A DNA stretch of 63,929 nucleotides, filler included, from Reclinomonas americana ATCC 50394 (Eukaryota): the NCBI GenBank assembly GCA_048213135.1. It is 5 parts of 3 records of this genome, joined end to end, with 100 filler letters (N's around TTAATTAATTAA, not from the genome) between each part and the next. Parts side by side here need not be neighbours in the genome. Positions count along the whole stretch, not along the records: positions 20,567 to 41,789 come from PS015514.1; 4 more parts are not named here. One strand, written 5' to 3'. The position numbers were made by a program, and so were the translations under genes. The notes under the pieces were generated by a model. That model saw nothing but the letters and a program-made list of their open reading frames with translations. It had not been told where the DNA came from and did not search any database. This document shows positions 7,926 through 52,986 of this stretch, piece after piece; position 1 is the stretch's first letter, and each line of letters opens with the position of its first letter.

Positions 7926-8046
7926 GAGTGCTGAGTGAGGCAAGGCGTGAGGCACCACAGAGCAGTGAGCAAAGACCGATGCTCCAAGTCGTGCATGTGA
8001 GAACGAATGTCCTTCTGTGTGTCTATGTGTCCTCCGTCCAACGAGA

Positions 8047-9064
8047 ATGGCTGCAGCTGCTGGTGCCAGTGCTGCTCTCGCACTCGATCAAGGCGTTGTG
8101 CTGGTCACTGGTGCAGCATCGGGCATTGGTCGCGCACTGGCCACACATGCTGCCACTGGTCTGCTCTTGCCTCTCACGCTCTCTCTCTCTCTCACACACA
8201 CTCACTGACTCCACAGTGGAGCACTGCAAGGCACTGGTGCTTGCCGATCGCGACAGCGAGGGAGTGGCCGCCGTGCAACGCGAGCTGAGTGAGAGCAGCA
8301 CGACGATTGTCAGCAGTGTAGTGTGCGACCTGTGCGTGCCCGACGATGTGCGTCGCATGGCGGAGCACGTGCAGCACGTGTGCAGTGAGCACAGTGATGG
8401 AGCGCTGTCGGCCATGTTCCTCAATGCCGGCATTGCGGGTCGATCGGCCGGCACTGCGCCGACGTGGATGACCAGTGAGGAGGAGTGGGCGGGGGTGCTG
8501 GGCGTGAATCTGTTGGCAGCCACGCGGTGTGTGCGACTGCTGTTGCCGGCGATGCTGCAGGCGAAACGGCGAGCGCATGTGGTGTGCACGTGTTCGCACT
8601 CGTCCGTGTCGACCGGCTTGCCCCTGGCCGCGCCTTACTCAGCCTCCAAGCACGCCATTCTGTCGTTTGTGGAGTCGCTGTCGCGCGAGTTGGAGCTGAC
8701 GGGCCATGGGGCGCTGGTGGGCGTGTCGGCGTTGATGCCCGACTGGGTGGCCAGCACGGCATTGTTGCGCGATCAGCTGCAGAATCCGCGGTTTCCGCCC
8801 GACATGGCCGCCGCCATTCAGAGTGGCTCCATTCCGGCCGCCGAGTGCGCCCGGCTCGCCTTTGAGGGCATGCACGAGCGACGCGTGTACATTTTCACGC
8901 AGCCGGCCACCACACGGCGTGAGTTGCGCGCGCGGGTCGATGCGCTGCTGCATGCGCTCGACGAGGCCGCCAACAAGTCCGCGCCGACACCGCCAGACAA
9001 GCCGCGTGATCGAGGAGACGGTGGCGGCGACGATCAAGGCCCCACCACAACAGCCGAGGAGTGA
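8047..9064 (+). CDS. Classical short-chain dehydrogenase/reductase
   Basis: VTGAASGIG cofactor motif, NAG, GVNL and catalytic YSASK. One intron at 8159-8216. Confidence 0.92.
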
Positions 9065-20466: not shown

Positions 20467-20566
20467 NNNNNNNNNNNNNNNNNNNNNNNNNNNNNNNNNN
20501 NNNNNNNNNNTTAATTAATTAANNNNNNNNNNNNNNNNNNNNNNNNNNNNNNNNNNNNNNNNNNNN
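20467..20566. other. Artificial scaffold linker (N-TTAATTAATTAA-N)
   Basis: A six-frame stop linker embedded in Ns; the same 100-nt structure occurs four times in the window. Confidence 0.95.
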
Positions 20567-20689: not shown

Positions 20690-21530
20690 ATCTTCTCACT
20701 CTCTTTGACCTTGTTTCCTCTCCTTGCAGCTCTTCTCTCACTCTGGCCCTCTGTGCCTTTCCTCGTGTCCTTCTCTCGCTCTCCTCCTTCATCTTTCGTC
20801 CTCCTATCCTTCTCCTCCTATCCTTCTCTCCTCCTGTAACCCTCCTTGCCTCTCCTCCTTGCTTATCCTCCATTCTGCAGCTCTTCTTTGTTTCTCTGGC
20901 CCTCTGCCTCTCCTCTTGTCCTTCTCTCACTCTCCTCCTTCATTCCTGTCCTCCCCTCCTTTAAGCTACATCCTCCTTGCCTCTCCTCCTTGCCTATCCT
21001 CCATCATGCAGTTCTTCTTTGTTTCTCTGGCCCTCCTTGCCTCTCCTCCTGTCCTTCTCTCACTCTCCTCCTTCATCTTTCATCTTGCTGTCCTCCCCTC
21101 CTCCTGTAGCCCTCCTTGCCTCTCCTCCTTGCTTATCCTCCATCCTGCAGCTCTTCTTTGTTTCTCTGGCCCTCTTTGCCTCTCCTCCTGTCCTTCTCTC
21201 ACTCTCCTCCTTCATCTTCTCCTCCTGTAACCTTTCTTGCCTCTCTTCTTTGCTTATCCTCCATATTGCAGTTCTTCTCTTTTCTCTGGCCCTGTTTGCC
21301 TCTCCTCCTACATCCTCCTACATCCTGCCCGTCTCTCAGTCTTGACTCCTCACTGCCTTTCTATTTGACATCTCCCTCCATTCCCCTGTCCTTTCCCCCT
21401 CCTGGCCTCTCCTCCTGTCCACTCCTCCGTCAGTCTCTCCTGCACTCGCTCTCGTTGACCCATCTTGTCTCTCTCCGTGCATCATTTTCTTCTGCTCTCT
21501 TTCTCTGGCCCTCAATGCCTCTCCTCCATT
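20690..21530. repeat. Pyrimidine-rich diverged tandem repeat, period ~120-140 bp, probably intronic
   Basis: tttctctggccct recurs at 20891, 21022, 21161 and 21281 with flanking cttgcttatcctccat..tgcag. Confidence 0.8.
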
Positions 21531-21865
21531 TTCTAATCCTTCTGTCGTTCTCTCACTTCGTTATCCCTCCGTGCCTCTCCCCTTCCTTCCCTTGCCTCTC
21601 CTCAACTTTTGACCTTCTTCGCCTCTCCTTCTTCTCTCGTCTCTGACTCCTCCTTTCCTCTCCGCCAATCTTGTCTTCCCTTCTCTTGCCCTTCACTCCA
21701 TCTTTGGCCCTCCCTGCCACTCCCTCATCCTTGACCTTCTTCCTCCTTCCTCCTTCATCCTTCATCCTCTTTTCTTCTCTTGTTCCCCCATCCCTTCTCC
21801 CTTCTCCCTTCACCCTTCTCCCCCATCCCTTCTCCCCTCTCACCCCTTCTCCCTATTCTTCGCAG

Positions 21866-22120
21866 GCGGTGGCCGACTGCGCCGCCGCCGTCCGACGACT
21901 CGTCGACAAGGGCCCTCCAATCTACGTGGCGGACCGCAACGGACTGCCCCTGCCCGAGGGCGACACGCACGTCGTGCGCGTGTGGTTCTCGAGCAGCAAC
22001 ACCGAGGAGAGTGCCAAGCTCAAGGGCGCGCTCGAGGGTGGCGAGCGCGAGGAGATGTGGGCGAACCAGCGAGAGGTGCTGGCGTCGATGGAGGCCGCGG
22101 AGGAGGCAGAGAAGGCGTAA
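21866..22120 (+). CDS. Terminal exon of an unidentified gene
   Basis: Polypyrimidine tract and cgcag acceptor, strongly GC3-biased frame AVADCAAAVRRLVDKGPP...EEAEKA, TAA at 22118-22120. Confidence 0.7.
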   Translation, partial: AVADCAAAVRRLVDKGPPIYVADRNGLPLPEGDTHVVRVWFSSSNTEESAKLKGALEGGEREEMWANQREVLASMEAAEEAEKA

Positions 22121-22127
22121 CCACGCA

Positions 22128-22735
22128 GCATGTACGTCGATCACAGTGAAGATGATTGCTGGGCATGCTACGTCTCTCTCCCTTTTCTTTTCTTCGCGAA
22201 TGACAGGGCTTGTTGTTTACTTAGTACCCTCTTTCTCTTACAACTTCTTCTTCCTGATGGCTCCCTGCGTGTCGATCGCAGTGAAGCTGATTGCTGGGCA
22301 TGTCACGTCTCCCTCTTTTTCTTTACTCGGCTCTTTTTCTTTACTCGGCGCATGACAGGGCTGTTGTTTACTGAGTACCCCCCTTGTTTCTAACAACTTC
22401 TTCTCCTCATGGCACCCTGTGTGTCGATCGCAGTGAAGCTGATTGCTGGGCATGTCACCTCTCCCTCTTATTTCTTTTCTTGGCGCATGACAGGGCTGTT
22501 GTTTACTTAGTGCCCATTTCTCTAACAACTTCCTTATGGCTCCCTGCGTGTCGATCATGCTATGTCTCTCTCCTTTTCTTTTCTTGTTTACTCAGTGCCC
22601 CCCTGTCTCTAACAACTTCTTTGTCCTTGGATGATTGCTGGGCATGCTACGTCTCTCTCCTTTTCTTTTCTTCGCGAATGACAGGGCTGTTGTTTACTTA
22701 GTACCCCCTTTTCTCTAACAACTTCTTCTTGCTTG
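22128..22735. repeat. Tandem array of ~127-152 bp units between two convergent stop codons
   Basis: gtcgatc at 22136, 22271, 22423 and 22550; recurring blocks tgattgctgggcatg, atgacagggctgttgtttact and tctaacaacttc. Confidence 0.9.
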
Positions 22736-22741
22736 CCGCTC

Positions 22742-25700
22742 TCAGCTGTAGCGCCACTCGCGCAGCGTGCGGACCCACGAATCGCGCTGTGCAATGCATG
22801 CGGTGGTCACCAACAGAGTATGTGTTTGTGACGAGCAGCTAGGGGTGACAAACCTCGCTGTCCTTGCAGGAGCAAAACACGCGTGGCGGCAGGTCTGAAT
22901 CCTCGCGGAACTCGATCTGGAACCAGAATGTGCGACCGTCCACGAATTCTGCGAGCGCGCAGTGAGACACACAATGAATCCACAAAGCAGAGCGGTGAAC
23001 TCACGGTGCGGCGTCAGCGGCGACGGGGCCGTCGGCAGCGGCACCACACGCACAATCTGATCTCTCCGCATTTCCACCTTATAAATTCTGCGAGCGTCTG
23101 GCATGTATGACACCAGCACTGTGCGAATTGTAAAGTACCCCATGAGCCTCCAACTCTCCACAGACCACCCTTCCAATCCACCCTCACCGTCGTTAAACAG
23201 CGTCAGCCGAATGTCCCTCGTCTCGGTGGGTCGATTGTCCAGTTGCATCTTCATCGGGTTAGGCCGGTTCAGTGCGGCCTCACGAATCAGCTTTCGGTCG
23301 GGTTCCACCTGGTCACAGAGCAATAAGCAAAATTTTGTGTACGTGCTCATCACGCGACAGACGCTCAGAACATAAATGGATGAACGAGCTTCTCTTCTGT
23401 GTCACTTGCATCGTGAGAGTGTCGCCCGGTTGAAGACAGACGCGCAGAACGCAGATGAACCAGTGAGCGTTTCTCTCTATCCCTCTCTCCCTTCTTCCCT
23501 CCCTCCTCCGTGTACGTGCTCATCACGCGACAGGGAGGAACCAATTGACACACCCTCATGTTCAGTTCGGCTTGCACCTTGCGCACGTCCAGCAGGCGCA
23601 AATTGAGACGCTCCACACTCTCCGCCCACTCCTGCTGTGCCACGCGGCACAGTTGAATCTCGGGCTCCGGACTGAGGTGCAGCAGAGTGGGAATGTCCAC
23701 ATAGGTGTAGAGATCCGGTGGTGTAAAGTCAATGAGTTCGACCAGCAACGGATTCGGATACTTCATGGCGCGCATCGGTGACATGGCCACCACTGCGATC
23801 GACGGTGAGACAAAAAAAAAGGACACCAGTCATCAATCTCCTCGCTGCCTCACCAACGTTGGCGTCCAGACCCGGCACACGTCGATTCTCCTCGGCAAAG
23901 GCCGGCATGTCGCGGACCAGCCGCATCACCATTTCTGCCGACAGAAAACAGTACATCAGCATCACAGACTTCTTCTGGGTGTAGTGCTTGTCACAGTCAC
24001 ACTCACCCTGGAAGTCGAAAATGTGCTCGGCGTAGTCGGCGGCAGCACTGCGATGGACATGTTCTCTTAATTGACCCACACTCGCATGATTGCGCGCGTT
24101 GGTGACGCACCTCAGATAGTGTGTGGAAGCACTGAGGATGCGACTGACGGGCAGTTCGCGATTCAGTTGCTCCCACCACTCAATGTCGGTTTCGAGGCCT
24201 TCCGTGTCGCGCAGTCGTTGCAGCGCATACTGCAGGGGATTGTAACGCTGCACGAATCCACGCCGTTCCTCCACGTCCGCCTGCGCACGAGCCATGACAA
24301 ATGAGTTGCTTAACAGCACAGTGCATCGCTGAATGATAAGACCTTTAGCAAGCTGAAGAACAATGCCATGGTATCGCGCGTGGGAATATGAACGGGCTGC
24401 TGCTCCTCGATGAGGCGCATGAATGGACCCTTATGCTCGCGAATGAACTGCGTGCACACAGTATCAGTACACGCACACCATGGACTTGGGCGCAGAGACT
24501 CTGCACTACGCACAAGCTCGCATGTCTCCACGATCTTGCCTTCCATGTCGACCATTTTGAGAATATGCTGCGACACAAAACAAGTCTTAAGAGTCAACAT
24601 CCGCGACACAAAAACAAGAAACAGGAAGAGAGCCGCACCTTGGCACGATTGCGCAGCTTATCCAGGCGCTTCGAGGCATCACCCGTCAGTCTGGTCGTCG
24701 GTGTCGTCTCCGCCCCGATTCGGATCAAGTGGAATTTGTTCCATCGCGCCGCCGAGTTGTGGATCCTACCAGTACACCGGGTGAGCAGCGAAGATCAGGT
24801 ACAATCATGCAGGGGGCGCTGGCAACACAGACCATTCGGCGCAGCTCGCCGCCAAATCAGACGCCATTGTGTTCACTGTTTCGCCGAGCTTGACGGCGAT
24901 CATACCGAGACGCTCATCAGCGGTCGGCGATCGAGGCACATCTCCGACACTCGGTGAGCCCGGCGAGACCTCCTCCTCCTGCACACCAAACTAATACAAT
25001 GCACGTAAGCAGCAGCAGCAGCGAGACCGAGTTCCAGCACACACACACACACACGCACTCTCTCTCTCTCTCACACACACATACATACACACACACAGAA
25101 CGAACCGGTGGCACATAGACGCGCAGCAAGCGATCTTCGTCAAATAGGTGCATATCGTGCACAATCACGTCGTGCACGCGAGCAGACTGGGCGAACTCCT
25201 GCCGCACTACTTCTTCCGTGATTTCGCGCGTGGTGGTCATCACCAGCACGCGAGGCGGCATGGAGAGTGCCGAGATCTACACACCACGGTGAGCAAACAT
25301 ATCGCGAACAGCCAGCTGTTATGTCGACCACCACTCGTTTTGCGCACCTGCTTGAACGCACTGAGTGTGGCGTGGCACAGCAGCACCAGATCAGCGTGGG
25401 TGGCGACGTTCAGAATGAGCAGGTTGCAGACGCCGGCAATCAGCGTGGTGGCGAATTCGGCCGAGTTTCTGCGCACACACAACAACGTTGCGGTTGTCAG
25501 GAACCGAGCAAAAAATGAACGAAAGTATCAACCGGACGAAACGCTGGCGCTGCGACTCCGGTGATGCGCACGTCATTGATCGACGGTGCCGCAAGCACGG
25601 CGACGTCACAATTCGGGTGCTCATCACCAGGGTGAACGCACATACCGGCCGACAGGAATGTTCCTTGCAGGAGAGGGATGTCGGTGGCCTCGCGGAAACG

Positions 25701-28700
25701 AGTGCCGAACAAAAAGTTGAGCAGCCGGGCTCTGCATGCAAACCAGTGAATTCCAAGCAGCAACCAACGCACAGATAACCATAGTATGATATGCTCACTC
25801 AACTGTTGCGTGTTGCGGACGCCGATGGCACCGACTGTCAACACGCGTGGCATCTCACCAATGTCGCCACCGCCCAGAATGACACTCGAGCCAAAGTGGC
25901 TCCAGCTGGGTGGCAGACCGCGGAAGGGCAGCATGCGCTCAAATGCAGTGAGGACAAGTTGTTGATCCAGTGGCTCCACACCGTTGCCGAAGACGCGGAT
26001 ACATCCGTTCTCCTCGGACCACATCAGGAATGCGTCCAGGATGGTGTTCAGCTGCGAACGCCTGTCAGTCATTCATGCACACAACAACAACAACAACAAC
26101 AACAAGACGAGCTCCTTCCCTCATACTCACCACTGGAGCCGCCTCGCGATATGCTGCCGAATTGTGGTCGCCGGCTTCGAGGATCTCGCGATACGACTAC
26201 AGAGCAAAGAAGAATAAGCAAACCGATGAGACGGAGATTCGACACACACAAAAGAGAGGGAGGGAGGGTGAACGGATTTGAAGCACACCAGTAGCTCATG
26301 CCAAAAGTCGTGAATCGTGTACACCGCTGCTGTGGCGGCAGTCGGCACACACTCGCGCAACGCATTGTCAAACTGGCGGCACACATCGCACACGTCGCCG
26401 ACACCGTCAAATGCATTCACGATCTCCCCAAGGAAGATCTTGACGGCCTCGCTGAGACCACTGTCGGCCGCGACCGCGTCAGCGCCGAATGGAACCTCGA
26501 ATACTCCAGGGGACGGTGGAATGAGTACCATGGCAGCCGCCGTGGCCGCTGCCGTGGTCACCGCCGGTCCCGCCAGAGCATCTTGACGCATAGCACGACG
26601 CCGACCTCGTTGCTGCACAGTGACGGTTGCGTTTGAGGAGGTCAAGAGCCAATGCACTACACTGCAAGGTACACGCACCAACAAAAACTCCTTGGCCTGA
26701 ATAGTGAACGGAAACAGTTCTTCCCGACTCATTTGCACCAGAGCTGCAAGATGTTGAACAAAGACCTGCGTGATAATGTCATGCGTGTGTCAGCAAACGC
26801 GTCCGTCGGTGGAGATAGAGATGCAAAACACACAAAAGGACGAAACATGCATCTCGTCGGGACGAGACAATGTGAGATCCGGTTCCTCGGCAGCCGCAGA
26901 AAGCTGCCTTGCCTGACGACGAAGCTCCTCAATTTGCTGCGACAGCTCTTCCACTTGCGCTCGGTCAACGCTCTGTGTGCACTCGGCAGTCAGGTGGTGT
27001 GTCTTACAAAGTCTCCCGTGTACAAAAATACACACACCGCTGAAATCAGACGACGACGACGGTCCACAAGCAGCTCCACCGACCGATCGAACTCGGCCAC
27101 GCGTCGCCGGCACTCCATGATGCGCTCGTAGCGTTGCAGAGTGGTCGCATTCTCATGTTGCAGCTCTGCCAGCTCCTTTATGGTTCCATTGATTTCGGCA
27201 GCGACGCAGCACAGGGCGGAGAACACCTCATTGGCGGTGGTTCTGTCACTCAGACTCTGTGCATGAAGCGAACGAGATCAATCAGAGTATACGCGCGCAC
27301 GTTTGCGTCATCAGGATAAGCAGGAACGCACCTTTTCTTCCACGTCGATCTCACGAGTGACCGCCATGCGCCACTGCGACACATCGGTACGCGGCAACAT
27401 CCACTGCGTGGTCTCGCTGGCCGTGCGAATGCGATCGCGATACATGTCGCACCACATGAAGGCCAGGTCGCAGGCCTCTGCGCACGCGAGTCATGTAATT
27501 CAGAATGAGTGTGCACAGACACACACGCGCGAGGTGCAGCACGCAACGTCGAAGATCCGTATCGGCAAATCCGCAAGCAACGTCACCAACGGCGGCAAAC
27601 TCGAATGCCTCGCGGAACTGCTGCAGCACCTCGCCAATCTCGTTTTGCATGCTGAAAATACGATCGAGGTCTCGACGGATTTCGTCCGTCAAATCCTTGG
27701 CCTTTTGCACAGCACGCCGGCACGACGCCGCCCTCAAGCGGCTCAGCTCACGCACCTCCGCCGACAGGTGATGATTCGCCATGGAGTGCCCACCAGCCGG
27801 TCTCGCCGATCGCGATGACAGACTCATGCTCGACACGGCAATGCTCAGTCGATGATGCGCCGATTCAGCCTCGCTGGTGGCATCGACCACCTCGACACGC
27901 AGTTGAACCACACGCTGCGTAGCCATGCTGGCCCGATTTCCTGGTTTCACTTGATCCAACTGTCACCACACACACCCAGATCAAATCAGCTACCGATCGC
28001 AGAGTCTGTCAATCACCGCCACCAACGCAACTCGACCAGTGCTGCGCATCCGCAGCAAGAAATCACAGGCCTTCATCATGCCGGCGGCGCGGAGTCGCTC
28101 GCGGCGAAGACCCTGCAGACCGTCGACCATGCGTTGCAGATCCACATCGTTGGCCACTCGCATGAAGCGCTCGACCACGATACGAGAATCTGCCTCGGCC
28201 GGCAACGGGGGGAACACCGGCGCCGGGGGAGCACCAATGTATGCCGACATGATGCGGTCGAACTGTGGTGAGAGCGGTGTGAGCGCACACACAATATAAC
28301 CAACTAATGCAAGAACGCGCGATACCAAACCTCGTCGGCAAAGATGTCGCTCATGTTGTCTTCTGCGCGCAGAACGATGCGCACATCACACAGCGAGGAG
28401 CCCGTCCCATACATTGTGTCGAAGAACTGCGAAATGGAACGCAGCATCACAGTGGCGGCCGAACCCTTCGGGAACTCTGCGAGACGCACGCCCAGTGAGT
28501 GAAACGAGGAGAAGGAGGAGGAGATCGTGGCACTCGTCACGCACTGGCAAAGCCGCAGCCAATGGCCGGGAAGGCCAGCGACTCGCACTGCTTCTCCGTC
28601 GCCTCTTCCAGGCAACGAAAGACAGCGTGACCGAGAAGCTCCTCAGTGGCACGCAGGTTCATCTCTTCCCCCGATGCGTCACCATGGGGGTCGTCTGCAT

Positions 28701-29674
28701 TGCCGCGAACGACTTGCGGGCCATCTGACGACACGAGAGAGTTCCACAAATGGGTCAGCGGACAGTGGCGAACGACGACGGCAACGATGAGACGCAACTT
28801 GTGTGCACAATCCACTTGATCAGGTGCTTTTCGGCCAGTTGTGAGCCTCCAGGGGCAATCACCGCCTACAGTGTGGGGTAAGTGACATGGCGACGGAGGC
28901 ATAAGCACTCGTGGGATGTGTACCTCGCCAGAGGGAAGCTCCGCCTTCTTGATCGGCGACGCGGCCTTGACAGCAGCCACGGCATAGCTCTCCACATCAC
29001 CGCCACCGGCGTCCTTCAGTGCACGACTGACTCCAGTCACAAACCGCACATTGGGGTTCGACGTGTTGACGACAGCAGTGACGGGGAAGTCGAGCAAGTT
29101 GCCCTCGAACACCTGTGGGCGGTGAGTGAGAAATTGTCCGCCTCCAAGAAGTACTAGTGAGACCAACAGAGGCGCGTCACACCTGAATGCGCCGTCCCTC
29201 GTGCGACACAAAGCGCCGCAGGACATGCAAGGGGAGCACCGTCGGCGGCACACAATGCCCGCCCAGTCGCTTGCTGTCCGCCAATACTGCCGCGCGTCTC
29301 TCTGACGACGCAAACATCTGCGACGGCAACAGCAGCGGTGGCTCGGGTGACTGCGACAGTGGCGGCGACGAGAAGAGCCGGCTGCCCGAGTCGTTGCGTC
29401 GCGGAGGCGGCGGAGTGGCGACATCAGTCACCAGTCCAATGGCGCTGGAGGCGAGCATGCGGCGTGCGCTGGCTGCGGCTGAGGCTGCGGCGTTGGTGGG
29501 TGGCACTGGCAAGGTGGGCGAGGAGTGGCTGGCGGGCAGATCATCGTCGTCGACGAAGCGATCCTGATCGCGAGGAGAGTACGCGGATTGAGAGGCGGCA
29601 CTGGGAACGGATGTTGCGCCCTGTGCTGGTGTGGTGCGCGAGGTCGGCGAGTCCTTGCTCTGACTGGTGCCCAT
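22742..29674 (-). CDS. Large multidomain protein: N-myristoylation motif, macrodomain, coiled coil, degenerate VLIG/GBP-type GTPase, C-terminal PH-like domain
   Basis: About 20 GT-AG introns link one continuous frame from MGTSQSK (ATG 29674) to ...ERDSWVRTLREWRYS* (22742). Macro motifs GNLL..AVVNTSN, WIVHTNGP and SLAFPAIGCG; GTPase-like LLNFLFGTRF and EFATTLIAGVCNLLILNV. The junction near 26290 is ambiguous but the frame is open across it. Confidence 0.72.
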
Positions 29675-29783
29675 GGCGTGCGCTGCTCTCTCACACACAG
29701 GCGCCGCGATTTGTGTTCCGTTTTGCAGCCGTCAGGAAATTGCGGATTGTGAGGATTGCGCGCCACGACGACGACGTCGACCC

Positions 29784-31179
29784 ATGACAGCGGCTGGTGT
29801 GCCTGTGTGGGAATACACGGGACTGCAAGGCGGAGGCCTTCGCATGGCGGTCTCGAGCGGATCACCGCAAGTTGCGCGGTGATTCTCGAACTCTTATCTG
29901 TCGTTCTTCCGCTCACATCACTGAGCGCAGATGGTGGCGGTGGCCGGCAACTCCGGGAGCACGCATGTTCTGGATGTTGCGGATGGGAGGCTGTTGCACA
30001 AGATCAAGGGCGGCCTCACGGTGGCGTTTTCGCCCACGGATCCGAACCTGCTCGTCACCACCGTGTATCCGGACGACGAGGACGACGAGGAAGGAGAGCA
30101 CGGTGTGACGGCGTGGACAGTCGATGCAGAGTCGGTGCAGCTGCGGTGGAGGAGCACGGGGCACTCGGATGTGGTGACGTCGTTGGAGGTGTCGCGAGAC
30201 AATCGAGTGGTGCTGAGTGGCAGCGACGACTGCACGTTGCGGGCGTGGTCGGTGGCGACGGGGGAGTGTGTGGGCATGTTCACCAGTGACGACTACGAAG
30301 AGGTCATGTCGCTGGCGCTGATCCGAGACTACGGCGACCTGTTGGTGGTGTTGTCGGTCGGTCGTTGTCTGTGCTGGTGGCGCGTGGCGACGCAGGAGGT
30401 GGAGCGGCGCGTCAGCACGCCATCGCCGGTGCTGAGCATGGCAGCGTCGCGCGATCGGCAAACGGTGGCCACCGGGCACGTGGATCGTGCCGTGCGGCTG
30501 TGGTCGGCCGACTCGGGCGACTTGCTGTGCACGATGAACCTATCGGAGGCGCAGTCGGTGCGCGTGCGCAGCTGCTGGGTACGGTCGGTGGTGTTTGCCG
30601 CCGACGGTGTGCACTTGCTCAGCAGCTCCAACGGTGAGTCCGTTCCGGTGCAGGCCGTGCACGCTGCATGCAGGTGTGCTTACTTGAGTGCAGAAAACTG
30701 TGTCTGGGTGTGGGATCGTCGCACGCCGACGGCCAGCGTCGCCATCGTAGAAACCAGCGGCACCGATGCGAGTGGCAGTGCACGTGGTGGGCGCGCAAGT
30801 GGAGCTGCATCGCCGTGCCTGTTGTCGAATCCCGAGGACCTCCTCACCATCAGCGCGTGCGGCGTACAACGGTGGCCTGCCGGTAAGCACGACGCCGGCG
30901 ATACACAGCGGCCGGTGCCTCACTTTGTGCATCATGTACACAGGTCCGTGGAGCGCGCGGTGGCACATGGAACTCGAAGTTGCCGCTGCGCTGTCGGCAC
31001 GTCGTGCGCTGACTGCCGAGCTGCAAGCAAATGCAGACGACGACGACGACGACGACAGCGGCGAACCACTCCCACTCGTCGTACTGCGGTGCTTCATCAG
31101 CGAAGACGCGCAGGCGACGCTGTGGAGACTGTCGGAACAACATCTGCGGCTGTCTTGTCCTCGTCTTGATCCACCATAA
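29784..31179 (+). CDS. WD40-repeat protein
   Basis: GHSDVVTSLEVS..VLSGSDDCTLRAWS, VATGHVDRAVRLWS and VWVWD repeats; introns start at 29871, ~30634 and ~30883; TAA at 31177-31179. Confidence 0.88.
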
Positions 31180-31181
31180 AA

Positions 31182-32212
31182 ATGACGGCTGTCGCGCGCA
31201 CCGTGCCACATACCAACTTCACCGCGGTGCCTGTCGCCCAGCCATTCTGCGCACTCCCTCGCTACCTGTTTGTGCGCGAAAACGAGGCCCCAACACCCGA
31301 CGCCGGCACCACTACTGCACTATTCGTGGTCAATGTGCCGCCGAGTGAGAGCGACGCACGTGCGCAGATCACTCGCGCATTCCAGCGCAAGAGCACCGAT
31401 GCACCCGTGGTCATTGGCAGCATGACACCCGCCGTCTCCACCGCAGGGCCCTCCACCGACGTGCGACGTGCGCGCCAGCAACTGTTGCGCTCTTCTCCGG
31501 CACACACTGTCTCTCTGCGCTGTGACTGACTCCTCTGCCACGCACACACACAGCGAGCTGCTGCATCCACTGTCGGAGGTGGCGGTGACCGAGAGCGCAC
31601 GCGCGGGCTTTGCGTTGGTGCCAGGCGCCGATCGCCGCGCCATCCGCATGTCCACCTCTGTCACCACAGGCACACGCGCAGTGGAGGCGACAGAGCACGG
31701 ACTCGGCGTGTACGTGACGCGGTATCGTGCACGGCGTCGCGTGCCTCGCGAGCTGCAGGCCGAGGTCGATACCTTTATGCGTCGCTTTGATGAGATGGAG
31801 CGGAGAAAGGAGGAGGAGCTGGAGACGCGTGCGCGCAGTGGGCCCGACGCCGATGGGTTCATCACGGTGTTGCCGACGAAGCGACAGAGTGTGCGGATGG
31901 AGGCGGCGGGTGGCGCCAAGGCCGTCGGCGATGCGTTTGATTTGGTCGATGCCGGTGTCGATGTGGGGGAGCCGGCGCAGAAGCGCGCCAAGACGACGGG
32001 CGGTGAGGCCATTGTCGACTTTTATCGCTTCCAGAGGAGAGAACGCAAGCGCGAACGTTGCGTCGTCGTCGTCATCTTGAGTGGAAAATGGTGCGTCGAT
32101 CTTGCTGATTTTCTTTCTGCATGCAGAGCTGGCCGACTTGCGACGCAAGTTCGAGGAGGACAAGGCGCGCATTGCCAAGATGCGTGGCCAGCGCAAGTTC
32201 AAGCCCTTCTAG
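31182..32212 (+). CDS. RRP7: Ribosomal RNA-processing protein 7
   Basis: YLFVRE..ALFVVNVP N-terminus, ELQAEVDTFM..FD, PDADGFITV, DFYRFQRRERKREQLADLRRKFEEDKARIAKMRGQRKFKPF*. Confidence 0.95.
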
Positions 32213-33505
32213 TGTACGCCGAACCCTTGCCTTGTTTTGCTATTACCCTGTTAGAAAGAGAAATAAATCGTCGTCATGCATGCATGTGGATTTCGAGCGA
32301 TCAGAAGTTTTGTGTACAACTCGGCTCGAGCGAGGCGCAAAGGACGCAAAATGAGACCCAAGGCTTTTCTGTGCATGGACACCAGGAAAGAGGAAGGAGG
32401 AGGAGGAAGGGAGGGAAAAGTAAATAAAAAACGCGGGCCGCCACTGTCACCCGAGGAGAAAATCAACCAACCGTCGTGCTTCTTCACTTCCCTCCCCCTC
32501 CCTGTTGTCCATTTAGCACNNNNNNNNNNNNNNNNNNNNNNNNNNNNNNNNNNNNNNNNNNNNNNNNNNNNNNNNNNNNNNNNNNNNNNNNNNNNNNNNN
32601 NNNNNNNNNNNNNNNNNNNNNNNNNNNNNNNNNNNNNNNNNNNNNNNNNNNNNNNNNNNNNNNNNNNNNNNNNNNNNNNNNNNNNNNNNNNNNNNNNNNN
32701 NNNNNNNNNNNNNNNNNNNNNNNNNNNNNNNNNNNNNNNNNNNNNNNNNNNNNNNNNNNNNNNNNNNNNNNNNNNNNNNNNNNNNNNNNNNNNNNNNNNN
32801 NNNNNNNNNNNNNNNNNNNNNNNNNNNNNNNNNNNNNNNNNNNNNNNNNNNNNNNNNNNNNNNNNNNNNNNNNNNNNNNNNNNNNNNNNNNNNNNNNNNN
32901 NNNNNNNNNNNNNNNNNNNNNNNNNNNNNNNNNNNNNNNNNNNNNNNNNNNNNNNNNNNNNNNNNNNNNNNNNNNNNNNNNNNNNNNNNNNNNNNNNNNN
33001 NNNNNNNNNNNNNNNNNNNNNNNNNNNNNNNNNNNNNNNNNNNNNNNNNNNNNNNNNNNNNNNNNNNNNNNNNNNNNNNNNNNNNNNNNNNNNNNNNNNN
33101 NNNNNNNNNNNNNNNNNNNNNNNNNNNNNNNNNNNNNNNNNNNNNNNNNNNNNNNNNNNNNNNNNNNNNNNNNNNNNNNNNNNNNNNNNNNNNNNNNNNN
33201 NNNNNNNNNNNNNNNNNNNNNNNNNNNNNNNNNNNNNNNNNNNNNNNNNNNNNNNNNNNNNNNNNNNNNNNNNNNNNNNNNNNNNNNNNNNNNNNNNNNN
33301 NNNNNNNNNNNNNNNNNNNNNNNNNNNNNNNNNNNNNNNNNNNNNNNNNNNNNNNNNNNNNNNNNNNNNNNNNNNNNNNNNNNNNNNNNNNNNNNNNNNN
33401 NNNNNNNNNNNNNNNNNNNNNNNNNNNNNNNNNNNNNNNNNNNNNNNNNNNNNNNNNNNNNNNNNNNNNNNNCACACAAATAACACAAAACACCCGCACA
33501 CACAC

Positions 33506-34370: not shown

Positions 34371-37300
34371 ATGTCGTTCAGCATCCCTCAAGTGATTGAG
34401 AAGGTACGCGCAACGTGGATGCAGTGATCTCGGAGGCGGGCGGGGCGCTCTTCCTTGTTTTCGCCATGCATGTTGTCCGCTCGCTCCCTCTCTCTGCTCC
34501 CTCTCTCTCTCTCTTCCCCTCGCCGCCTTGTGTGCGTTTGTATGCACGTCATCACACTCCTCGCCATGTGCCTGTGCGTGTGTCTGTGGGCGACTTTGAA
34601 TTTTTCCTGGTCGACCATGTCAGAACAAATATACACAAGCACTCTGTTGTCTCACTTTCTTGTTCTGTGCACACACACTCTCTCGCGCACACAGAGAAAC
34701 GCACACACGCACACAACACGCACATCATCAGTCTTCATGAGATGACGTGATTTCGCATTTGAAGTAGCCCTCATGAAAGTCACTTTCTCTCTCTGTCTCT
34801 TATCCTCTCTCTTCTCTCTTTTGCACCTCTTGTGCCACACAGTTCCGGTCGCCGGACAAGGATCTCCGGTACATGGCCTTGAACGACCTCAATGCGGAAA
34901 TGTCAAAGGAATCGTTCAGGCTGGACGAGAGCGGTGCGCGCAGTCTCTCGGAGGCACTGCTCGGCATGCTCGACGACGCCAACGCCGAGGTGCAAACCAT
35001 GGCCATTCGCTGGTCAGTGCGCGCACCTCTCTCCCTTCTATCATCCTCCTGTACTCATGTTGTACGTGCAGCATGGTGCCGATTGTGTCAAAGATCCCCG
35101 AGACGCTCATCAGCGATCTGTGCGACCAGCTGTGCACACGAGTGTTGGGCGCCTCCGATGCGCAGCGTGAGATCTCGGCCATCTCGTTGAAGACCATTCT
35201 GCAGCAGCTGCCGCACAAGTACTCGTCGTTTGTGTTGCGCCGCGTCGGACCGCGCATTGTGGCGGGTGCGCGCGATGGTGCCTCCAACGAGGTCAAGGGT
35301 CAGTGCCTGGAGATTCTCGTTGAGCTGTTGAAGCGCTTTGGTGGCCTGCTGGCCGCCGAGCACGACTCGTTGCAGGCGGCCGTGATTCCACAGGTTACGC
35401 AATCACTCGCTCGCTCCCTCTGATCCCAAGATTCGCACTCAACATCATCATCATCATCCTTCGTCCACAGTTGGCGGCCTCCAACGACGCCGTGTGCAAG
35501 CGCGCCATTACTGCGCTGGCCACTCTGTCGATGCACTCGTCGGACGATTTGCTGGACTCGCTCATGTCGTTGCTGCTGGCGCAAGATCCGCACCCGGTGG
35601 GAGTGTCGGGCGAGATCACGTTGCACACGTACATTCAGACGACGGGCGCCATTTCGCGCTCATGTGGTGCACGGCTCGGCCGCTACCTCAGCCGTGTGAT
35701 CCCGCTGCTGCTGGAGAACGCTCACGCAGTGGAGGGTGACGATGGCGAGGCCGACGAGACGCGTGAGCACATTTTGCAGGCGCTCGAGTCCATTGTGCTG
35801 CGGTGTCCGCGCGAGGCCGCCGGCCACGTGGACGTGATTGTCGATTTCTGCAAGGAGATGTTGGTCTACGATCCCAACTGGGACACGAGCATGGATGTGG
35901 ACGAGGAGGGTGGCGATGAGGAGATGGACTACTCGGGCGATGAGTTGTTGCGTGCGCGACTCGTTGTGCCAGAGAACGTTCGCCACCAGTTGGCTGATGA
36001 TGATGTTGTCGTGTGTGTGTATATATGTAGCGAGGAAGAGGATGGATACTCGGACGACGACGACGTGAGCTGGAAGGTGCGCAAGGCCGCCTGCAAGTGT
36101 CTCACGGCGGTGATGAACGTGCACCCGGAGATGCTCGACCGCTTGTACGCCAAGGTGCGCATGATGATAAAGAGAGGGTGTCCCTGGTCGCCTCTCGCTC
36201 GTGTCACCTGTTCTCGATATCTTTGAGATGCTGCATCGTCGCATCTTTTTCTCTCTCCATTCCTCTCCCTCTCAATTCATTCAAGTGGGTGCATCTTTTC
36301 CTCTCATCCTCTCTTCCTGTCGTTCTCGGTCAAGTTTCTGCATCTTTACTTCCTCTCTCGTCTCTCCTTTTCTCGATTTCGTTCAAGCTGTTGCATCTTC
36401 ACATTTTCTTCTCCCTTTTGCCACTGACACTTCTTTCACCCGCACAGCTGGCGTCCCCCGGCGACCGTCTGCTGGTCGATCGCTTCCGCGAGCGCGAGGA
36501 GAATGTGAAGGAGGAGGTGATGAAGACGATGTTGGCGCTGCTGAAGCAGTCGGTCATTATCGGATCCAAGTTTCGTCTGCACTTCGCCATCTGCGCTGCA
36601 TCCTCGTCATTGCTCGTAAATGTAACCAATCGTTGCGCGCACAGCCAAGACATTCGTCGCCGCCCCGGTGTGATGGAGAACCTGACGGCGATCCGCGACC
36701 AAGTCGTGTCGTCGACGATTCGCGAGATCAAGAAGGCCAAGAAGCCCGACGTGCGCACGACCGGTCTCACTCTGCTCAAGCAGCTGGTCGTTGTGCTGGT
36801 ATGTGGTGTTTATTTCCTCACCGCCCTCCTTCTTCTGCCTTCGCTGCGCCCCTCCATCTTGTCGCTGTATATTCTCTCTCTTCATCTCTGCTCTGTCTGC
36901 TTCCTTCTAAGATGAAACATTTCTTCTCTCTCTGTTTCTCCCTCGCTCGTCTTCCGCGCAATCATTTTCTGGCGTGTTGCTCTCTCTCTCTCTCTCTCTC
37001 GCCCATCACTCATCGCTGACTTCGACCGTGTCAGAACGGCGGATTGGAGGGTCACATTAGCGCGCTGCTGCCGGTGCTTGTCGACGCCGTTGTGGAGCGC
37101 TCGACCAACTCGTCCAATGTCAAGTCCGTCGGTCTCTCACTGGCCCACACGCTGGTGCAGTTCCACGACGCACGCCTCCTCACGGGTGTGTACGCCAACA
37201 TTAGCAAGGCCGTGTTCTCCTGCGTGGAGGATGCGTACGCCAAGACCATGGCCGACGCACTGCGTGTGTGCCGCAACTTTGTGCCGGTGGTGCAGGCCTT

Positions 37301-40008
37301 CCGAGTTGCGTGAGAGTAATCGTCTACCCCTTTCCTATTTGTGATTGTTTCGCTGATTGGAGGCGAGCAGGCGAGCGGATCGCCCGACTTCCAGCGCCAC
37401 GTCACCGCTCTGTTCGGCGTGGTGGTGGGCCGTCTGCAAATGCAGGACATTAACCAGGATGTGAAGGAGGCCGCCATCAACGCCATTGCCGACATTATTG
37501 CCGCCTTTGGCGATGTGGTGCCGCTTGATGAGGTGTGTGTGTTTCTCTCCTGCGCCCTGTCCCTTCATTTCTCTCACACCCTGATCCCTTCTTCTTTCCT
37601 TAACACAGGCACTGTCGCTGCTGCTGGACCGCCTGCGCAACGAAATCACTCGGTTGACGACGGTCAAGGCGCTGCGCTCGATTGTGGCCACGCACGCTCG
37701 TCGCCTGGACCCGATCATGCGCGAGTTGATCGCCGAACTCATCTCGTTCTTGCGCAAGAACGACCGAGCTCTGCGTGCTGCCGCCATTCAGTCCTTGGCC
37801 AGCCTCATCACCGCGTACCCGGCGGCGTTTGCCGGCGACACCTACGCGCACCTGCTCGGCGAGTTGTCGCAGACCATTACCGGTGCCGACTTGTTCCTCG
37901 TCCAGCTGGCCGTGCGTCTCGCCGTCACAGTGCTCGGCGCCGATGGCTCCACTGCCGGCGCCGTGTACGAGTGCGTCGGACGACCGCTGTTTGTGCTCCT
38001 CCGCGGCGCGCTGCTGCAAGGCAACGCCATGGAGGTGTGTGTCTCTCCTCTCTCCCTTTCATTGTCATTGTCATCATGGTGCTCACCAATTCTTCCGCAG
38101 CCTGTTCTGCGTCTGTTCAGTGGCCTGGTGCAGGCCGGCACTCCGGGCTTCCGTGTGCTGTGCGACTCCGTGCTGGACATGCGTGCCTCGTCGGCCGAGG
38201 AGGCATCGCTGGGCAAGCAGGCGTACGTCTCACTGGCGCAAGCTCTGGCCGCCATGTGCTCGGTGGCCACGGCGCAGGAGCGCTCCTCGACGGTGCAGCA
38301 GTTGGTGCACACCATGCAGCGTGCCGGCGCTGACGACCCCAGCCGCATTCTCGGTCTCTACTCACTGGGTGAGATCTCGCGCTCGTTCGACGTGGAATCG
38401 GTGGTGCACCAGGTGCGCGACGAAGTGATCAAGTCGTTCGACGGCCCAGAGGAGGTGCGCAGTGCCGCCGCCGTGTGCCTCGGCAACATTGCGGCTGGCG
38501 CGCTCGACAAGCACCTGCCGTTCATTCTCGGCGAGATTCGTGGCGGCTCGCCGCACAAGTACACCCTGCTGCGCTCGTTGAAGCAGGTGATTGACGGTGC
38601 GGCTCCAGCGCAGCTGCAGTCGCGCGTGTCGGACATTGTGCCACTGCTGGTGGGCAGCGTGGAGGCCGGCCAGGATGTCGGCGTGCGAAACATTGTGGCC
38701 GAGTGCCTGGGCAAGCTGATTGTCACCAACCCGCCGGCGCTGCTGCCGACAATTCGAGTTGCGTGGAAAGAAATCACTCGCGTGATTCGGGAGCTTCTGA
38801 CGTGCCTTGTGTGTGTGCAGGAGGGCATGGACAGGTCGCTCAACATGCGCGTGGTGTCCATCACGGCACTCAAGTCGGCGCTGAGCGAGCCGGGCATTGG
38901 CGACGGTTCAGTGCTGGCCGACGATGTGCTGCGGACGCTGTCGATGCTCAACCCGGGACTCGATCTGGTGCGTGAAGAAAAAGAGGGGAGAAAGGGTTCA
39001 AGGTGGATTGCTGATGGGCCTCACGACTTGCAGGAGGTGCGACGTGCTCTGGTGCTGCTGCTGAACAGCTGCGTCCACAACAAGGCGCATCTGGTGCGCG
39101 ACCACCTGCACGAGATTGCGCCGTTGGTGTACGTGGAGACACCAGTGAATGTTGCGTCTGGTGTCGTGCCGCTCTCCGCTGTAGTTTGGTCGCCTGACTG
39201 ACTCGTGTGTGTGCGCGCGCGCTCCAACAGCAAGCGCTGCTGCGACAAGTGGATCTCGGTCCATTCAAGCACCAGGTCGACGATGGCCTGGAGCTGCGCA
39301 AGGCTGTGTTTGAGTGCATGGATGCCCTGCTGGAGAGCTGCTCGGAGGTGAGTGACTGGGGAGAAGGGGCGGAGTAAGTCCTGGTTGGTGGCTGACTCGT
39401 CAGTTGTTTTTCGCAGAGCCTCTTGCTGGCCGACTTTGTCAGTGCCTTGATCGTGGGTCTCTCCGATCCCGACTACGACATTCGCATGCTCGTGCACCTC
39501 ATCTTTGGCAAGCTGGCGCAAGTGGCACCCTCGTCGCTTCTGCCTGGTGCGTTGTGTGTTGACGACAGTGCGCGTGTCGTCGCCATACCCTTCCCATTTA
39601 CATGCTGTTTGCAGTTCTCGACGAATTGGTGGCGCCGCTGAAGGTGACGCTGGAGACCACGGCGAAGAAGAATGCCGTGCAGCAGGACGAGGATCGCGTG
39701 AAGGAGCTGATTCGAAGTGCCGTCAAGGCGTGCCGTCTCATTTCGATTGCACTGGTTGGTGTTCTCTCCTCTTTTCGTCTACCAGTCGGTTTTTTTGTGA
39801 TCTCACTCCATTGCTGCAGGGCACGGAGAGTGCCACGTCACAAAAGGCGCCCGACGCACTTGGCTCTGGTGCTTTCCACGAGCTCGTCACCAAGGTCATT
39901 CGCGCCAAGGACGATCTCAAGTCGTTGTACGAGAGCGGTGATTTGGACGCACCGACGACACCCACGCCGCCGCCGAATGAGGGCACGTCGGGCAACCCGT
40001 TCCGTTGA
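34371..40008 (+). CDS. CAND1: Cullin-associated NEDD8-dissociated protein 1
   Basis: [47 protein letters not shown]-like [36 protein letters not shown] and [24 protein letters not shown]. Confidence 0.97.
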
Positions 40009-41789: not shown

Positions 41790-41889
41790 NNNNNNNNNNN
41801 NNNNNNNNNNNNNNNNNNNNNNNNNNNNNNNNNTTAATTAATTAANNNNNNNNNNNNNNNNNNNNNNNNNNNNNNNNNNNNNNNNNNNN
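41790..41889. other. Artificial scaffold linker
   Basis: N-TTAATTAATTAA-N. Confidence 0.95.
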
Positions 41890-42402
41890 CCGGCGAAACT
41901 GGTCGTGCAAGAGCTCCCTGGTTTTCGAACACAAACTTGACCAGTAATCTGTCGCTCATAACTCGTCGTCACATGCTCCGTTGGCATCAAGCCACATGGC
42001 ATTGCGTGGGAAATCGTCTCCTGCCTCTCGTGGACCCTTTTTGCAGGACGGAATCAGTCTGCCTCGGCAGTGCCATGCGCCACGCCAACTGGACACCAAA
42101 AACTGTCAAAATTCCGGCGGTGGACCAACATCCACCGTGCGACTGAGAAATCTCTGCAATTCACTGAAGGTACCACCATGTAGAATGCACGGCGTAGAAT
42201 CCAATGGACCCTTGCGCATGCACAAAATTTTGTTCGGATCCGGAAGGGGGTCTGGACATACCACCACCCGAGAGCATCTTCGTGATCTCGGCTCGAACAT
42301 GCCAACTACGCACTCCTTGGGAAGTGGGATGACCACCACTTTCAAGACGTTGCACAGTCCCGCAGCGCGCGCGCCCAACTCAAATTTTAGAATCTTGCAA
42401 TC

Positions 42403-43917
42403 ATGCACACGGCGCGTCTTTTCGTCCTTTTCCCCCTCCTCCTCCTCCCCCTCCTCCTCCTCCTCGTGTGGCACCCACTGTGCGTCCTCTCCTCCCCCAC
42501 CCACCCTCTCTCCTCTTCATCGTCGCACACGGAAACTCGCGGTTTCCGCGCGCTGCCACCCATTCCGCAACTCACGCAATCACCACCACACGCATGTCCC
42601 CCTGCCGGCCCCTTCCAGCAGCCCTCACCGCCGGGTTCCCGCTTCTGTGACGATGGCGCGCCAAGCATGGTACACCTGTGCATGTCGGTGAGCGGCTGGC
42701 AGTGGACAGGCATTCCGTGTGAAGACATTGTGTCGTCGTCGCCACTCGTCCTCTCCGTCGGTGGCGGTGGTGCGTCGAAGCAAGTGCAAGTGCCGGAGCA
42801 CTACGCCAACGCCTTGCTGCGTTTGCTGTGGCCGCTGTTGAATGCGCACGACGAGCCGCTCTCGTCGTCGCGATGCGTGCGTGGCAGTGGCGACGAGTGC
42901 GCAGAGTTCCCGCCTGTTGACTGCGCAACGGCCGCGGGCCGTGAGGTGCGCGGCACGCGCGAGGCCTTCATACGCTACGCCGAGGGAGTGGTAGTTGGCG
43001 GCGATGCTGATAAATACCAAGGCGGCTGGCTGCACCAGGAGGCGCTGCTGGCGTTCGTGCATCTCTCGCGCGTGCAGCACGAGCTGGGCGTGTACGGTGC
43101 GGTGGGCGAGATTGGCGTGTACCAGGGCATGTCGTTCGCGCCGCTGGCGTTGACGGCGGCTCGCTGCGAGTTTGTGTGGGGCGCCGATGTGTTTGACGAC
43201 CAGGCGCTCAACCTCGACACCTCGGGCGCGAGCCCTGCAGGCGCCGAAGGCAATGCAGGTATGTGCAATATTGACAATGGGAAAAAGATGCCACCCACTC
43301 TCTCTCATTCATCTCCCACAGCTGGTCTCTTCGAAAGGCTGCTGCATCGCATTGGCAACATTAACGATCAGCCGCGCACCATGGTTTTTGCGCGGTCGTC
43401 GCTCACGTTGAAGCCTCGCCAGCTCTGCAGCGCCGGCGTCACGCGCTCGCGCTTCATCTCCATCGATGGCATGCACTCGGCACACGCCACCTTTGAGGAT
43501 CTGGAACTGGCGGCGTGCTTGCTGCTCCCCGGCGGCATCATCGCCGTCGACGACATTCAAAACTACCATTGGCTGGGCGTGCACGAGGCGGTCGACCAGT
43601 GGCTGCAGTGGCGCCGCCACGAGTTCGCGCCGTTTGCAATGGGTGCCAAGCTGTACATCACCACTGCGTCGCACTACGATGAGTACCTGCGGCGGCTGCT
43701 GGAGCTGCGTACGATGGACAACTCGGAGCCGCTGTATCATGCCAACTTCCGCCGACAGCGCATGGTGCACGGCTGGCCGGTGGCCACCATCAGCGACAGG
43801 GTGCTCTCGCCGTCGGTGGCGGAGCTGGTCGTCGACTATCGATACGCGATGTCGCCCGTCGCCCTGGGCGAGCTGCTGGCGCGCCTGGCGGGGGTGGAGG
43901 CTCAACAGCGGGCGTGA
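42403..43917 (+). CDS. Class I SAM-dependent methyltransferase (Methyltransf_24-like) with N-terminal signal/anchor
   Basis: Hydrophobic N-terminus LFVLFPLLLLPLLLLLVW; GAVGEIGVYQG, DVF, FISIDGMHS and GGIIAVDD; probable 63-nt in-frame intron at 43259-43321. Confidence 0.85.
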   Translation: MHTARLFVLFPLLLLPLLLLLVWHPLCVLSSPTHPLSSSSSHTETRGFRALPPIPQLTQSPPHACPPAGPFQQPSPPGSRFCDDGAPSMVHLCMSVSGWQWTGIPCEDIVSSSPLVLSVGGGGASKQVQVPEHYANALLRLLWPLLNAHDEPLSSSRCVRGSGDECAEFPPVDCATAAGREVRGTREAFIRYAEGVVVGGDADKYQGGWLHQEALLAFVHLSRVQHELGVYGAVGEIGVYQGMSFAPLALTAARCEFVWGADVFDDQALNLDTSGASPAGAEGNAGMCNIDNGKKMPPTLSHSSPTAGLFERLLHRIGNINDQPRTMVFARSSLTLKPRQLCSAGVTRSRFISIDGMHSAHATFEDLELAACLLLPGGIIAVDDIQNYHWLGVHEAVDQWLQWRRHEFAPFAMGAKLYITTASHYDEYLRRLLELRTMDNSEPLYHANFRRQRMVHGWPVATISDRVLSPSVAELVVDYRYAMSPVALGELLARLAGVEAQQRA

Positions 43918-52886: not shown

Positions 52887-52986
52887 NNNNNNNNNNNNNN
52901 NNNNNNNNNNNNNNNNNNNNNNNNNNNNNNTTAATTAATTAANNNNNNNNNNNNNNNNNNNNNNNNNNNNNNNNNNNNNNNNNNNN
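52887..52986. other. Artificial scaffold linker
   Basis: N-TTAATTAATTAA-N. Confidence 0.95.

Follow-up and report, generated by a model that had tools for sequence, protein, structure and literature searches.

The window analyzed here is a 63,929-nucleotide (nt) stretch of eukaryotic draft sequence from Reclinomonas americana ATCC 50394, with 4,497 N, and our subject is an intron-rich gene on its minus strand that encodes a macro domain (below, the macro gene) and sits on the piece at 20567-41789. Coordinates count along the window, and features lie on the minus strand unless stated otherwise. The N-terminal third of the predicted protein comprises a candidate lipid-anchor signal, a macro domain of the PARP14 type and long helices, and the C-terminal two thirds belong to no recognized family.

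The gene model runs from an ATG at 29674 to a TGA at 22744-22742 as an unbroken path of GT-AG introns through 28-29 exons. Its first five introns were set by eye on the minus strand, and a splice-graph dynamic programme was then used that admitted only GT-AG introns, barred in-frame stops and scored paths by codon log-odds and splice-site weight matrices. Four intron penalties, used with a minimum exon length, gave 26-32 exons and products of 1,477-1,621 amino acids (aa), all sharing the stop at 22744-22742; the working model has 28 exons and 1,577 aa. A second model, built with neighbor-trained codon scores and an intron-length prior, has 29 exons and 1,652 aa, and 20 of the 28 exons are the same in both. 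The two differ at 27914-28037, 26743-26847, 25028-25106, 24639-24863 and 24343-24394, and in a possible extra exon at 23386-23493. Thus, where the initial annotation had spliced many fragments of open reading frame (ORF) into a single gene of roughly 1,700 aa, the multi-exon path (26-32 exons) holds up, but the length comes to 1,477-1,652 aa instead; the sequence strings that it quoted are all present in the locus. Introns are mostly 49-96 nt long; their donors resemble GTGCGT, GTGTGT or GTGAGT, and their acceptors CGCAG or CACAG. Two early models were dropped, one of 20 exons that skipped small exons and one of 42 exons that was over-split and overran the true stop into CT-rich tandem repeats.

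Codon usage was trained solely on seven neighboring ORFs with Pfam support (2,678 codons). By this measure each of the 28 exons has a positive score in the model frame, and for 25 of them that frame ranks top of the six; the remaining three are exon 1, exon 15 (where there is a tie) and the final exon, which has 14 codons. The mean over the whole coding sequence is +0.30 bits per codon, compared with -0.26 and -0.29 when it is read in the other frames; the concatenated introns give -0.19 to -0.27. GC content at third codon positions is 0.70 in the exons, compared with an intron GC content of 0.53. Given these codon-usage scores, frames and base compositions, the exons are real coding sequence of the R. 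americana genome.

The macro domain and the N-terminus

The macro domain is encoded at 28331-29112 by exons 2-5 (29112-28924, 28865-28799, 28724-28545 and 28476-28331) together with the last two codons of exon 1. It was the sole convincing Pfam family among the 17 fragments submitted: Macro (PF01661) matches the ORF at 28540-29427 in two stretches with 38.7 bits (cut-off 22) and an E value of 1.1e-9. Profile positions 1-41 fall on exon 2 and positions 71-106 on exon 4, which reaches 28.9 bits by itself, so the 22-aa exon 3 must bridge the profile between them. The spliced domain is collinear with PARP14 macro 1 from a bird (P0002), with 27% identity over 202 aa and a pairwise E value of 9e-14, in an alignment that opens with the final two residues of exon 1 and continues through exon 5. 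This collinearity validates introns 1-4 and ties the exon with the Met-Gly start to the domain. Among 2,807 candidates the macro ORF had one long relative, again PARP14 (E 4.4e-4), and its best sequence match in the PDB is Af1521 (E 7.7e-5), aligned in two stretches.

The motifs VNTSN, FVTGVS, HTNGP and AFPAIGCG all lie within 28545-29112, HTNGP being created by the exon 3/4 splice, and a macro domain carrying VNxxN, HTxGP and AFPAIGxG, as first proposed, is amply supported by these motifs, the Pfam match and the PARP14 alignment. The same proposal drew attention to VTG in place of the GGG loop. That substitution is borne out, as Af1521 "ehgggvayai" aligns with "rfvtgvsral" and the Gly-rich loop 1 (GGG) that follows the VVNAAN strand is absent here, but it is no peculiarity of this protein. 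PARP14 macro 3 has KTGVSRAI where the R. americana protein has FVTGVSRAL, and PARP14 macro 1, with HIGGLAEAL, likewise has no GGG; the VTG loop is thus typical of PARP14-type macro domains. Judged by its sequence, the domain is a genuine macro domain of the PARP14 type.

By its loops the domain is most likely a reader of ADP-ribose or of ADP-ribosylated protein rather than a hydrolase of the MacroD type. The GGG loop is the defining feature of MacroD-type catalysis, and it is missing here, since loop 1 is VTG and the second loop is GCGFAKFP. With Af1521 and the MacroD hydrolases the domain shares the fold family, the N-terminal VVN..N strand and the AFPAI..G motif, and it differs from them in these two loops. 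PARP14 macro 1 has been reported as a hydrolase, which leaves room for catalysis. The closest comparison is with PARP14 (and PARP9/PARP15), which gives the best full-length match of the spliced macro domain and whose macro 3 has an identical TGVSRA in loop 1; unlike PARP14, however, the protein described here has a single macro domain, has no PARP catalytic, WWE or KH domain, and carries a lipidation signal at its N-terminus as well as a long orphan tail. GDAP2 also couples a macro domain to a lipid- or membrane-binding element, but there the element is Sec14 rather than a putative myristoyl group and a possible PH domain, and GDAP2 is far smaller and has no coiled coil.

No other ATG precedes the start codon at 29674 within its ORF (29180-29731), and the codon lies in the context GCCATGG. 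It opens the sequence MGTSQSK (29654-29674), which the initial annotation had rightly identified as the start of the protein and as an MGxxxS motif. N-myristoylation requires an N-terminal Met-Gly and a small residue at position 6 (MGxxxS/T), and MGTSQSK, with Gly2, Ser6 and Lys7, follows this rule by sequence. Exon 1 (29183-29674) encodes 164 aa of low complexity, rich in Ser, Pro, Ala and Thr, which together make up 0.49 of residues 1-160. The first ATG of the divergently oriented WD40 gene, at 29931, is separated from this one by only 256 nt, so there is little space for more upstream exons. Within 29700-29760, about 50-70 nt upstream of the ATG, stands CTCACAATCCGCAATTTCC, which bears some resemblance to an oomycete-type initiator and flanking promoter motif.

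The helical region and the orphan tail

Exons 6-10 (26834-28262) encode a helical, heptad-rich region. A home-made heptad score places 278 residues above its cut-off, compared with 63 on average and 194 at most in shuffled sequences (n = 200), and these residues fall mostly at 421-723, which corresponds to 28076-26885. AlphaFold2 (AF2) run on exon 7 alone (27528-27938) gives long helices at residues 2-43 and 51-120, with a mean predicted local distance difference test score (pLDDT) of 73. The heptad-rich region claimed at the outset therefore stands, since its score exceeds that of all 200 shuffles and AF2 places long helices in exon 7. In Pfam it gave only weak cross-matches to coiled-coil families (Rod_CreS, E 0.0056; COG4_N, E 0.053). 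Exons 11-13 (26131-26765), which follow, have positive codon scores, no Pfam match and no recognized family.

Exons 14-17 (25106-26051) have been proposed as a degenerate GBP/VLIG-like G domain on the basis of sequence pattern. They read VLTVGAIGVRNTQQARLLNFLFG ... VAVLAAPS ... NSAEFATTLIAGVCNLLILNV ... VLVMTTTRE, and the part at 25106-25870 holds VLTVGAIGVRNTQQ followed directly by ARLLNFLFG, then NSAEFATTLIAGVCNLLILNV and RVLVMTTTRE. By eye, 25106-25870 comprises a strand, a Gly-rich loop, the ARLLNFLFG helix, two strands, the SAEFATTLIAGV helix, the LLILN strand, a further helix and VLVMTTTRE. We take this order of elements to be that of a G domain, a comparison of patterns that serves as a lead rather than a test. 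A G-like reading of exons 14-17 is tentative and falls somewhat short of even odds.

The queries for GTPase and PH similarity were single exons or read-through ORFs, whereas each of these domains would be split over four exons. With such queries, Pfam returned neither a GTPase nor a PH family for 17 ORFs at E <= 1 or for 18 exons at E <= 10, sequence searches of the PDB gave no GTPase or PH match, a word search with part of exons 14-15 at E <= 10 found no relative among 702 candidates, and an ESM Atlas search gave no usable match. A HMMER search of 1.84 billion representative proteins with the ORF at 25500-26072 returned one match only, P0001, which we rejected as spurious: it is a repetitive, fiber-like protein of 2,515 aa in which one 47-aa motif was matched five times. 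The GTPase and PH similarity claimed initially was thus matched by none of the profile or sequence searches. The initial annotation itself held that such an outcome would count against its reading; here it does so only formally, because exon-level queries were used and the HMMER filters discard weak exon-level matches, so that blank searches say little. AF2 on the read-through ORF of exons 14-15, which includes a 24-aa intron-encoded insert, gave a mean pLDDT of 37.3, too poor for a fold search. A Walker A motif ([AG]xxxxGK[ST]) is absent from the model and from every sense frame across 22000-29800, and a G fold here, if there is one, would therefore not bind nucleotide in the usual way.

The C-terminal middle region, exons 18-24 (23554-24978), has model-dependent boundaries within 24343-24978, and no homologs of it were found. 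The last four exons (23308-23188, 23118-23005, 22948-22854 and 22786-22742; overall 22742-23308) end in FWFQIEF..RVFCSCKDSE followed by RDSWVRTLREWRYS and the TGA. We take the last 125 aa to resemble, by pattern, a PH domain ending in a Trp-bearing helix. These four exons, searched with their read-through ORF, have no PH match in Pfam or the PDB, and from the sequence pattern we regard a PH-like reading of them as evenly balanced. Separately, the ORF at 24313-24657, which holds exon 20, gives a weak match to the Pfam family PH_17 (E 0.025; 14.8 bits, cut-off 22.4); it lies far from the proposed C-terminal PH domain and is probably due to chance.

Searches for relatives of the tail itself were equally empty. 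A word search with the exon 22-23 ORF among longer proteins found none in 258 candidates, a second search of the ESM Atlas gave no usable match, and scans of metagenome contigs with two queries and of prokaryote genome contigs found no relative. The tail, about 900-1,100 aa in length, is coding and lineage-specific and has no detectable relatives. Its orphan status may reflect sampling, because the lineage seems poorly sampled.

One gene or several, and the nature of the product

Our preferred interpretation, to which we give a probability of roughly 55%, is that the locus is one intron-rich nuclear gene for a membrane-tethered, oligomeric ADP-ribose reader or scaffold of about 1,600 aa. Gly2 of MGTSQSK would probably be N-myristoylated, and a disordered linker of about 160 aa would join this anchor to the PARP14-type macro domain, which, to judge from its loops, most likely binds ADP-ribose or ADP-ribosylated protein. 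The 400-450 aa or so of long helices would probably mediate self-association, and the C-terminal half would supply a second module for interaction or membrane binding. Several observations weigh against this interpretation. Eight of the 28 exons differ between the 28-exon and 29-exon models, and a dynamic programme forced to begin at 29674 almost always yields some path, so that path continuity alone proves little. Exon 1 scores +25.1 by codon usage but 29.6 in one antisense frame. The neighboring genes show unbroken ORFs of 300-540 codons and appear intron-poor, unlike the macro gene with its 27-28 introns. Joint conservation of the exons has no ortholog support, and the junction after exon 6, discussed below, is weak. 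Both phosphate-binding loops of the macro domain, moreover, depart from those of Af1521 (GGG is replaced by VTG, and the next loop is GCGFAKFP), so ADP-ribose binding is not assured.

The initial annotation had named two places at which the locus might be split, and both exist: the exon 6 ORF runs to a TAG at 27992-27990, and the exon 14 ORF opens with an ATG at 26072. The locus could then comprise two or three genes side by side, one for a myristoylated macro protein some 480 aa long that ends at the TAG and one or two genes downstream that start near the in-frame ATG at 27925 (MATQRVV), and possibly near the one at 26072 (MTDRRSQ), each of which begins the next ORF. The junction after exon 6 (27914-28037) is ambiguous and offers three in-frame GT-AG options, 28037 to 27940, 28017 to 27959 and 27994 to 27927, with leave-one-out donor/acceptor scores of 1.8/2.7 (the one chosen), 3.8/-3.3 and -0.8/-10.4; GT sites in the background average 1.1 (standard deviation 2.7) and AG sites -2.4 (standard deviation 4.6). 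The alternatives are thus no better than the chosen pair, which is the weakest in the model except for those of introns 2 and 18, and the TAG lies just 45 nt past the chosen donor. Introns 2 and 3, however, are equally poor (-0.9/1.0 and 1.1/2.1) and yet are proven by the macro alignment, and no donor in the gene is more canonical than the GTGAGT of the intron that precedes exon 14 (26051), whose acceptor is also good (6.4/6.8). Spacing also speaks against separate genes. At the doubtful boundaries the gaps measure 57-102 nt, much like the other introns, and the 64 nt between the TAG and the ATG at 27925 would have to be intergenic, whereas the divergent WD40 gene is about 256 nt away and in the next tandem pair about 480 nt lie between the stop codon and the first ATG. 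Judged by spacing and frame continuity in silico, a single gene is quite probable, and a cluster of two or three genes is improbable.

The tail could also be something other than a lineage-specific module. Exons 14-17 might be a catalytically dead G domain from the dynamin superfamily, in its GBP/atlastin/Sey1/VLIG branch, followed by a helical stalk and a C-terminal PH domain, and the product a macro-bearing, membrane-bound pseudo-GTPase scaffold. Hydrophobic strands and amphipathic helices alternate there in G-domain order, ARLLNFLFG comes after the Gly-rich loop, NSAEFATTLIAGVCNLLILN stands at the place of the post-switch-II helix and strand of these families, and the protein has a PH-like ending, ...CKDSERDSWVRTL, with a Trp in what would be the final helix. 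The likeness to GBP, atlastin, Sey1-RHD3 and VLIG proteins would lie in the proposed order of G-like block, helical region and membrane-binding end and in a motif-level resemblance; the difference is that the present protein lacks both a P-loop and a DxxG motif and gave no match in profile or sequence searches. VLVMTTTRE falls at the place of the GBP G4/RD motif as described in PMC11846989, according to which R181 and D182 (G4/RD) of GBP2 bind guanine and the P-loop is formed by R48-S52. A precedent is SMG8, which, according to PMC5473137, has a dynamin-like G fold without G motifs, binds no nucleotide and acts as a scaffold. It belongs to another context, and our protein gave no sequence match to SMG8 and none to Pfam Smg8_Smg9. 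The blank Pfam, PDB, HMMER and word searches, within the limits of their queries, and the missing Walker A motif count against a dead G domain, and we consider it unlikely. Still less likely is the full combination, in one polypeptide, of myristoyl anchor, PARP14-type reader, coiled coil, motif-less GBP/atlastin-like G domain, stalk and PH domain; if true, the product would be a pseudo-GTPase of the dynamin superfamily through which signaling by ADP-ribosylation is coupled to a membrane. That the downstream part is instead decayed or mis-assembled, a pseudogene tail rather than functional coding sequence, would agree with the failure of every search to find homologs of it, with the gaps of the draft assembly and with the microsatellites in two introns. 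The coding signal of exons 14-28, however, equals that of the macro exons, splice sites keep the frame throughout and no frameshifts are required, all of which makes a decayed tail very improbable.

ADP-ribosylation is read and erased chiefly by macro domains, whose partner domains reveal where the signal acts. What is new here is the setting of a known domain: a macro protein with a lipid anchor and a coiled coil would bring the reading of ADP-ribose to a membrane, in a eukaryote that is poorly sampled. The established portion of the protein is the macro part, and the remainder is orphan sequence. PARP14-type macro domains and GBP/VLIG GTPases cooperate in animal cell-autonomous immunity, and a tail made up of a dead GBP-like G domain and a PH domain would both link these two families and represent a new branch of dynamin-superfamily pseudo-enzymes. 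Any cellular role is conjectural, and one in defense or at the phagosome is pure speculation. Among titles and abstract openings of the literature outside subscription journals, we found no fusion of a macro domain with a VLIG, pseudo-GTPase or dynamin-like domain described.

Neighboring genes, spacers and repeats

The window contains four identical 100-nt spacers, [44N]TTAATTAATTAA[44N], at 20467-20566, 41790-41889, 52887-52986 and 62793-62892, with stops in all six frames. These mark it as separate contigs joined together, so genes beyond the spacers need not neighbor the macro gene. On the same piece, all on the plus strand, lie a WD40 gene (29925-31166), an RRP7 gene (31426-32424) and a gene for a HEAT-repeat protein (35324-39198); other plus-strand genes in the window encode a methyltransferase (42391-43914) and a short-chain dehydrogenase (7928-9061). 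Pfam matches were obtained for 10 of the 54 ORFs in the window. No paralog of the macro gene occurs within the window, and Rfam gave no match in the window or at the locus.

Several repeats lie within introns of the macro gene. The longest intron, 245 nt in the 28-exon model (23309-23553), to which the 29-exon model adds an exon at 23493-23386, contains an exact 24-nt direct repeat, CTGTCGCGTGATGAGCACGTACAC, at 23337-23360 and 23510-23533 (2 matches, compared with 0 expected). The repeat holds a C-box-like GTGATGA, and CTGA stands just before its second copy; it has no match in Rfam and could be an intronic element resembling a small nucleolar RNA or a small duplication. Microsatellites are present in intron 13, (ACA)8 at 26081-26105, and in intron 17, (CA)30 at 25038-25097; the 29-exon model treats the (CA)30 tract as coding, which is doubtful. 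Downstream, CT-rich tandem repeats at 20780-22484 occupy the 2 kb 3' of the macro gene stop codon, with a period of 139 nt at 20841-21309 and of 152 nt at 22183-22484.

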